Below are positions 21,702 to 22,445 of a stretch of 22,950 nt of DNA, piece by piece; the first letter of the stretch is position 1, and every line of letters starts with the position of its first letter. The position numbers and the translations under genes were made by a program. Below the pieces are notes generated by a model. The model worked only from the letters and a program-made list of their open reading frames with translations, did no database searches and was not told the origin of the DNA. This DNA is from Escherichia coli (GTDB taxonomy: Bacteria > Pseudomonadota > Gammaproteobacteria > Enterobacterales > Enterobacteriaceae): NCBI RefSeq assembly GCF_003334355.1, contig NZ_QOWP01000046.1; one strand, written 5' to 3'.

Positions 21702-22445
21702 ATGACACAGACAGAATCAGCGATTCTGGCGCACGCCCGGCGATGTGCGCCAGCGGAGTCGTGCGGCTTCGTGGTAAGCACGCCGGAGGGGGAAAGATAT
21801 TTTCCCTGCGTGAATATCTCCGGTGAGCCGGAGGCGTATTTCCGTATGTCGCCGGAAGACTGGCTGCAGGCAGAAATGCAGGGTGAGATTGTGGCGCTGG
21901 TCCACAGCCACCCCGGTGGTCTGCCCTGGCTGAGTGAGGCCGACCGGCGGCTGCAGGTGCAGAGTGATTTGCCGTGGTGGCTGGTCTGCCGGGGGACGAT
22001 TCATAAGTTCCGCTGTGTGCCGCATCTCACCGGGCGGCGCTTTGAGCACGGTGTGACGGACTGTTACACACTGTTCCGGGATGCTTATCATCTGGCGGGG
22101 ATTGAGATGCCGGACTTTCATCGTGAGGATGACTGGTGGCGTAACGGCCAGAATCTCTATCTGGATAATCTGGAGGCGACGGGGCTGTATCAGGTGCCGT
22201 TGTCAGCGGCACAGCCGGGCGATGTGCTGCTGTGCTGTTTTGGTTCATCAGTGCCGAATCACGCCGCAATTTACTGCGGCGACGGCGAGCTGCTGCACCA
22301 TATTCCTGAACAACTGAGCAAACGAGAGAGGTACACCGACAAATGGCAGCGACGCACACATTCCCTCTGGCGTCACCGGGCATGGCGCGCATCTGCCTTT
22401 ACGGGGATTTACAACGATTTGGTCGCCGCATCGACCTTCGTGTGA
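21702..22445 (+). CDS. K: Tail tip assembly protein K (JAB/MPN + NlpC/P60-like); long ORF with an alternative internal start at 21846
   Basis: 247-aa continuous ORF starting 6 nt after L's stop, containing a JAMM-type motif H-S-H-x7-S-x2-D (HSHPGGLPWLSEAD) and an upstream Glu (APAESCGF). The 199-aa form I recall as the canonical λ K would start at the internal Met MSPEDW. Confidence 0.85.
   Translation: MTQTESAILAHARRCAPAESCGFVVSTPEGERYFPCVNISGEPEAYFRMSPEDWLQAEMQGEIVALVHSHPGGLPWLSEADRRLQVQSDLPWWLVCRGTIHKFRCVPHLTGRRFEHGVTDCYTLFRDAYHLAGIEMPDFHREDDWWRNGQNLYLDNLEATGLYQVPLSAAQPGDVLLCCFGSSVPNHAAIYCGDGELLHHIPEQLSKRERYTDKWQRRTHSLWRHRAWRASAFTGIYNDLVAASTFV

Follow-up and report, generated by a model that had tools for sequence, protein, structure and literature searches.

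The full-length, two-peptidase gene K of a lambda-type phage and a single G whose absence from the lambda reference record is most likely an error

How long is the tail-tip protein gpK of lambdoid phages, and does it begin with a complete metalloprotease domain? The question is raised by a stretch of Escherichia coli DNA of 22,950 nucleotides (the window, the whole of which was analysed) in which a first-pass annotation had read K as a 247-residue ORF carrying a complete JAMM/MPN motif, whereas K in the lambda records J02459 and NC_001416 occupies 14276..14875 and is given as a protein of 199 residues. The ORF list, the sequence and a Pfam search all bear out the longer reading, and the JAMM motif together with the Pfam match is confirmed as lying far beyond chance. 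Positions 21702..22445 of the window hold gene K in full, from a phage or prophage of lambda type, in a region that is 99.7–99.8% identical at the DNA level to lambda and its derivatives. Its product, which takes part in assembling the tail tip, has two peptidase domains, and the gene stands in a tail cluster of the order L, K, I, with J beyond the window end. L is annotated as ‘minor tail protein’ in all matched records, and K starts, as had been noted before, 6 nt past the last base of L, leaving a 5-nt spacer. Our overall reading, to which we assign a probability of about 0.88, is that the 247-residue, two-peptidase K is real, that the 199-residue K of lambda stems from one G missing from J02459 and NC_001416 through an error of the record, that translation of the long form would be coupled to that of L, and that gpK is predicted to process gpI.

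The 48 codons by which the two versions differ supply part of an active site. The first-pass annotation had assigned to them the upstream Glu of the JAMM motif, and E19, within APAESCGF, does lie in the extension's first half of the JAB domain (Table 1). The 199-residue form keeps only positions 63–112 of the 114 positions of the Prok-JAB model, with an E-value of 1e-4.

Table 1. Coordinates of gene K, its parts and its neighbours in the window.
Feature	Position	Strand	Description and basis
Gene L, upstream neighbour	20998..21696	+	232 aa, TAA stop 21694-21696; ORF list
L–K spacer ATCCC, 5 nt	21697..21701	+	No Shine-Dalgarno; same in lambda reference (alignment)
Gene K, full-length	21702..22445	+	247 codons and TGA; ATG start; ORF list
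N-terminal extension, 48 codons	21702..21845	+	Absent from 199-aa annotation; helix 1 and first strands of JAB fold, including E19
Prok-JAB / JAMM (MPN+) domain, residues 3-104	21708..22013	+	Pfam PF14464, E 1e-13, model positions 3-112 of 114
Glu19 codon, upstream catalytic Glu of JAMM motif (APAESCGF)	21756..21758	+	Sequence
Internal GGAGG (21830-21834), then ATG of Met49 (21846-21848) 11 nt on	21830..21848	+	Start used for 199-aa annotation and by gene callers
G, third base of codon 45 (GCG, Ala)	21836	+	Absent from J02459/NC_001416 between reference nt 14266 and 14267; alignment
H68-S-H70-x7-S78-x2-D81, zinc-ligand and Ser block	21903..21944	+	Sequence
NlpC/P60 (C40) papain-like peptidase domain, residues 111-224	22032..22373	+	Pfam PF00877, E 8e-13; C121 (22062-22064), H187, H199
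Gene I, ubiquitin-like tail assembly protein, cut by window end	22343..22950	+	ATG 22343 overlaps last 103 nt of K

The shorter reading of lambda K turns on a single base. The L-to-K spacing had been put at 1 nt longer here than in lambda, and this is exact: from the end of L to the ATG annotated as the lambda K start there are 150 nt in the window (21696 to 21846) against 149 in J02459 (14127 to 14276). The 1-nt indel is real, but it falls within codon 45 and not in the 5-nt spacer, which does not differ; its context is GGAGGC[G]TAT, 10 nt ahead of the K ATG as annotated. The earlier surmise that a single-base difference might decide whether the extension is in frame is likewise supported, since the aligned reference does carry the indel and has no continuous 247-codon frame. 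The upstream ATG of K is identical in the reference (junction alignment), where it stands at 14133 and opens, in J02459 as deposited, a 76-codon ORF that is out of the K frame after codon 45; with the frame broken there by loss of the G, Met49 is left as the first usable ATG. When the G is put back into J02459 a 247-residue protein is obtained that is 100% identical to that of the window, the two genes differing by two synonymous changes, at 21803 and 22361. What had been taken for a difference from lambda is thus true of the reference record but not of lambda, since independent re-sequencings all carry the G; it is present, for instance, in the junction alignment of the re-sequenced records OM418625 (imm21) and PV340536.

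The neighbourhood of K suggests what a complete enzyme might act on. JAB-containing K adjoins a gene I whose product has an N-terminal PF06805 domain, which matches the phage JAB and ubiquitin-like gene pair in row 5 of Table 1 of Iyer et al. (2006). In that work the TAPI domain was described as a ThiS/MoaD-like ubiquitin (beta-grasp) fold ending in a conserved Gly, and the JAB domain of TAPK was predicted to cleave the ubiquitin-like domain off TAPI (Iyer, Burroughs, Aravind 2006; PMC1779556). The start of I has been annotated in three ways, at ATG 22343 (223 residues), ATG 22382 and GTG 22442 (190 residues). All 16 loci translated keep both ATG 22343 and the I-frame peptide ARICLYGDLQRFGRR, and on this conservation K and I appear to be dual-coding over approximately 100 nt. 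The Pfam domain Lambda_tail_I (PF06805) spans residues 14–97 of the 223-residue form and is followed by AGAKSGG; because it starts as early as residue 14, the 190-residue annotations and gene calls lose some 20 residues of the ubiquitin-like domain.

Following the published prediction, gpK would be a non-virion assembly enzyme whose JAMM domain acts in a deubiquitinase-like manner on the ubiquitin-like N-terminal domain of gpI. Cleavage would release the C-terminal part of gpI, found as a plug in the tail tip, and the NlpC/P60 domain of gpK may assist this processing. It has been reported that gpK is required for tail assembly (PMC12617516), that it is undetected by virion mass spectrometry and that the cryo-EM structure of the lambda tail tip models only residues 135–223 of gpI (PMC10721106); in the virion mass-spectrometry table of the same study gpI is represented by a single peptide at 9.9% coverage, which is uninformative on processing. 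The prediction fits, short of proof, both the modelled extent of gpI and the absence of gpK from virions, and the missing residues 1–134 of gpI could reflect disorder instead of cleavage.

A different role for the JAMM domain has been put forward, as speculation, by the authors of work on the Bil system (bioRxiv 10.1101/2023.09.04.556158), namely that of a counter-defence deubiquitinase: instead of processing gpI, it would take ubiquitin-like conjugates of the host Bil type off the central fibre gpJ. The JAMM motif is intact, and K works at the tail tip, the site of the Bil target gpJ, as this proposal would have it. However K is indispensable to tail assembly in hosts for which no Bil system is described (PMC12617516) and nearly always adjoins a gene with a ubiquitin-like domain of its own, that is a built-in substrate (PMC1779556), and we therefore regard counter-defence in place of gpI processing as unlikely. 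The two roles are compatible and not mutually exclusive. A combined scheme, in which full-length gpK is an active isopeptidase that both cuts the ubiquitin-like domain of gpI during tip assembly and removes Bil conjugates from gpJ, with an internally started 199-residue isoform of lambda-type phages as a further possibility, seems to us unlikely to the same degree.

The reading in which gpK is made at full length draws on the evolution of the extension. In a comparison set of 12 further lambdoid loci, 11 of them distinct in sequence and diverged as far as Gifsy-1 of Salmonella, a K frame of 245–247 codons is found in every one, and the segment ILAHARRCAPAESCGF of the extension is conserved throughout the 12 diverged loci. 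Variable sites in codons 8–48 are distributed over the first, second and third codon positions as 6, 7 and 24, and dN/dS in the extension relative to the window is approximately 0.05–0.3, similar to the remaining gene, with dS at 0.3–0.7 in the diverged comparisons. Judged by its pattern of substitution, the 48-codon extension evolves as coding sequence. More distant relatives, of 33–58% identity, align from their own N-termini and have the same N-terminal helix and Glu. The first-pass annotation had raised the true N-terminus as a question that a comparison with lambdoid K genes might answer, and that comparison provides evidence against translation from the internal Met49 only: residue 49 is Ile (ATT or ATC) in five of the 12 diverged loci, and in the clade of Stx phages Met49 is lost without other change.

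The distance from L to K varies more than does K itself, the spacer being 4, 5 or 10 nt across lambdoids (annotations of L005, L007 and L009; 17 upstream sequences) with K constant at 744 nt. Lambdoids with a junction of 170 or 176 nt were considered as possible sharers of the reference frameshift and rejected, their length differences lying in the L–K spacer (4 or 10 nt) and their K being 744 nt. A comparison of the upstream sequences of 17 loci reveals no Shine-Dalgarno before ATG 21702, and for this reason we infer that the long form would be translated by coupling to the end of L, 5 nt before it. When L and K are kept apart by an antirepressor (ant) gene, the upstream ATG has acquired its own GGAG at a distance of 6 nt. 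This arrangement is seen in phages 2851, PhiR12_5 and Stx2a_WGPS6 (L012, L013 and L014; locus 1-731), in which the ant gene and then a G+C-rich hairpin with a T-run lie directly upstream of K at the position of lambda L, and in which the K protein begins with five different residues, MLYSN. A literature search found no protein-level evidence for the gpK N-terminus, and the lambda CRISPRi essentiality paper contains nothing on the K start.

The GGAGG ahead of Met49, to which OM418625 attaches an RBS annotation, could in principle serve a second product. By analogy with C/Nu3, a pair of nested in-frame starts elsewhere in lambda (J02459), phages that keep GGAGG-N11-ATG might make two isoforms, the 247-residue enzyme and an internally initiated 199-residue form with the NlpC/P60 domain only. 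The strong internal Shine-Dalgarno and ATG are indeed kept in the lambda-like clade (the window, L003-L007, L010 and L015-L017, with a weakened GGAAG in L012). The same bases, however, double as codons for P43-E44-A45 and their retention is hence explained by conservation of the protein, Met49 disappears from the Stx-phage clade with nothing else changed, and an experimental hint of a second product is absent, which together make two isoforms quite unlikely.

Translation of the full-length gpK brings together the five residues E19, H68, H70, S78 and D81, and these, like C121, H187 and H199 of the NlpC/P60 domain, are invariant in 20 sequences of 67–96% identity (alignment A2). Among 34 sequences of 33–58% identity (alignment A3), H68 and D81 remain invariant and E19, H70 and S78 are at least 90% conserved, while the three NlpC/P60 residues are invariant or at least 90% conserved. 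A phmmer search matched residues 7–105 of K to PDB entry 2KKS (1.3e-5). An AlphaFold2 model of K, built on a shallow alignment, has a mean pLDDT of 78 with low confidence around residues 43–45 and 71–90; compared with the PDB by Foldseek it matched PfJAMM1 (5LD9/5LDA; E 6e-5, TM 0.57 on target), 2KKS (TM 0.59) and also Rpn11, CSN5 and AMSH-like proteins, and its C-terminal domain matched MepS, Acd33800 and 4HPE. Given the shallow alignment, confidence in this likeness of the K JAMM fold to solved enzymes is moderate. No report of zinc binding or of (iso)peptidase activity of gpK was found in the literature search.

One might therefore suppose that the JAB domain, part of which is modelled at low confidence, is a non-catalytic MPN scaffold like that of Rpn8 or CSN6, which only aids the binding of gpK to gpI or gpJ. 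Non-catalytic MPN domains characteristically lose the E/HxH/S/D residues. All five of these are retained in K across both alignments, so that a purely structural domain is distinctly improbable.

A complete JAMM domain in gpK returns us to lambda, and to whether the reference lacks the G because its phage did. The two forms GGAGGCGTAT and GGAGGCTAT tell presence from absence of the G at reference nt 14266. Among the best 40 records, a span of 900 rather than 901 bases occurs only in J02459, NC_001416, OR974322 and OR474059. NC_001416 is the RefSeq copy of J02459; OR974322, a ‘lambda’ isolated from a cloacal swab of poultry, repeats the feature coordinates of the reference exactly; and OR474059 is flagged UNVERIFIED and represents an engineered strain. 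The G is present in DE3, imm21, imm434, h434 imm21, PV340536, LC730321, KT232076, HK629 and HK630. Over whole genomes, J02459 and the independent 48,503-bp LC730321 show 15 differences, the additional G after 14266 among them; LC730321 also has a dozen substitutions, lacks a G at nt 139 and has gained a C in the orf-401/stf region, at 20836. The loss at 139 and the gain after 14266 would together hold the length of lambda at 48,502.

If the missing G were instead a real allele of the lambda cI857 Sam7 stock that was sequenced, laboratory lambda would have a K devoid of JAB and the domain would be dispensable. The four records without the G are what this would predict, but they are not independent of one another, all independent lambda derivatives carry the base, it is missing from a G+C-rich GGAGGCG context, and the compensating loss at nt 139 in LC730321 fits errors in an old record; a real allele is in our view very improbable. 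The absence of the G is most likely a sequencing or record error in the 1982 entry. The additional G at 14266 is presumably among the listed corrections to the 1982 lambda sequence. The literature search found no explicit published statement of an erratum at nt 14266.

That only a 199-residue K is made, from Met49 behind GGAGG, with the upstream 144 nt an untranslated spacer open by chance, is scarcely tenable: the GGAGG with its annotated RBS stands 11 nt before ATG 21846, ATG 21702 has no Shine-Dalgarno and gene callers choose Met49 on thousands of sequences (clusters P0058, P0060, P0065 and P0066) even with the long frame open, but against this stand the third-position-dominated variation and low dN/dS of the extension, its completion of an otherwise half-missing Pfam domain, the ATT or ATC codons at residue 49, the N-terminal helix and Glu common to the distant homologues, and the GGAG gained by the upstream ATG once it is uncoupled from L.

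The persistence of the 199-residue version beside a 247-residue gene has two sources, the G missing from the reference and the preference of gene callers for the internal GGAGG-ATG. The large 199-residue clusters, with thousands of members, were considered as proof of a real short allele and rejected, since in all but one contig the underlying DNA carries the G and the 247-codon frame is open. In that contig (L018, ENA ERZ28660271 scaffold_37003, about 58-80) TAG replaces TAT at K codon 46, so that a 199-residue product is the only one possible; this could reflect a pseudogene, a naturally occurring short variant or a misassembly. In Gifsy-1 (L010, NC_010392, 713-1450) K is annotated as 199 residues ‘by similarity to NP_040598’ over an ORF of 245 codons with a full JAB N-terminus, and this excess of ORF over annotation indicates that the reference error has spread into other annotations. 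A 2020 review likewise treated gpK as a protein of 199 residues with a single peptidase domain (PMC7291167).

The family to which the full-length protein belongs is large. A word-index protein search gave 836 matches, mostly of 242–249 residues with PF14464 and PF00877, and an exhaustive search gave 293 clusters (50% identity) at E <= 1e-30, the distant members of which align from their own residues 5–15. The K junction was found in 4324 of 5426 complete E. coli genomes, and K matches the PHROG family phrog_30, ‘minor tail protein’, at E 1e-163. Predicted fusions of L to K (PF05100 with PF14464 and PF00877) and of K to I (with PF06805), mostly singletons, also occur (P0020, P0035, P0042, P0016 and P0031), and fusions of this type were mentioned by Iyer et al. 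(PMC1779556). Because L, K and I lie in different frames, these entries could equally be frameshift or assembly artefacts. The record MW057783, ‘Campylobacter phage CJLB-4’ (48,361 bp), is 99.8% identical to lambda in the K region and carries lambda gene names; by this identity it looks like lambda DNA and not a Campylobacter phage.

The two-peptidase architecture of K and its link to the ubiquitin-like gpI are already known, having been published in 2006 (PMC1779556), and most database entries for the family are already 242–249 residues long with both domains. J02459 and NC_001416, the most-used lambda records, nevertheless still carry the one-base error and a 199-residue K that hides half a protease domain, and the error has propagated, for instance into the Gifsy-1 annotation and thousands of 199-residue gene calls; at least one recent review (PMC7291167) worked with the short protein. 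Anyone who clones, models or mutates lambda K from the reference works with a protein that lacks the catalytic Glu and the first JAMM strands, and with the first half of its JAMM domain absent from the reference the deubiquitinase-like enzyme of lambda is essentially unstudied. The corrected K matters for tests of the cooperation of K, I and J in assembling the tail tip, and for the proposed connection with ubiquitin-like defence systems of bacteria.

Comparison with characterized systems places the protein firmly beside lambda gpK (TAPK), with which it shares the gene order L-K-I and the architecture of JAB and NlpC/P60 domains described for TAPK (PMC1779556); its gene region is 99.8% identical in DNA to that of the re-sequenced lambdas. 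The phage in the window is a relative of lambda, approximately 97% identical over the structural genes, and the possibility that it is lambda itself was rejected on that identity and on its longer H. The tape-measure gene H (18093-20672) has 859 codons here against 853 in J02459, and from the longer tape measure a tail of slightly greater length would be expected.

The C-terminal domain of K matches PF00877 and keeps Cys121, His187 and His199, in common with MepS and other NlpC/P60 enzymes (MEROPS C40). In contrast to these, K has no signal peptide or cell-wall-binding module and is cytoplasmic and absent from virions (PMC10721106), so that a peptidoglycan substrate is doubtful. Its score against the phage_NlpC_fam model TIGR02219 is 23.9, below the cut-off of 81.9. 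In its N-terminal half K has in common with PfJAMM1, the HvJAMM1 desampylase of Haloferax, DSY2949 (2KKS) and Rpn11, CSN5 and AMSH both the fold and the motif E...HxHx7Sx2D, although its score of 29.8 in the NCBIfam desampylase model, far below the cut-off of 130, sets it apart from the orthologues of the desampylase. As with PfJAMM1 and SAMP2, the gene for K has a small beta-grasp ubiquitin-like domain encoded next to it. It differs from the JAMM isopeptidases in its fused papain-like peptidase domain and its role in virion assembly, and in a presumed substrate that is not a conjugate but a ubiquitin-like domain fused in cis to a structural protein.
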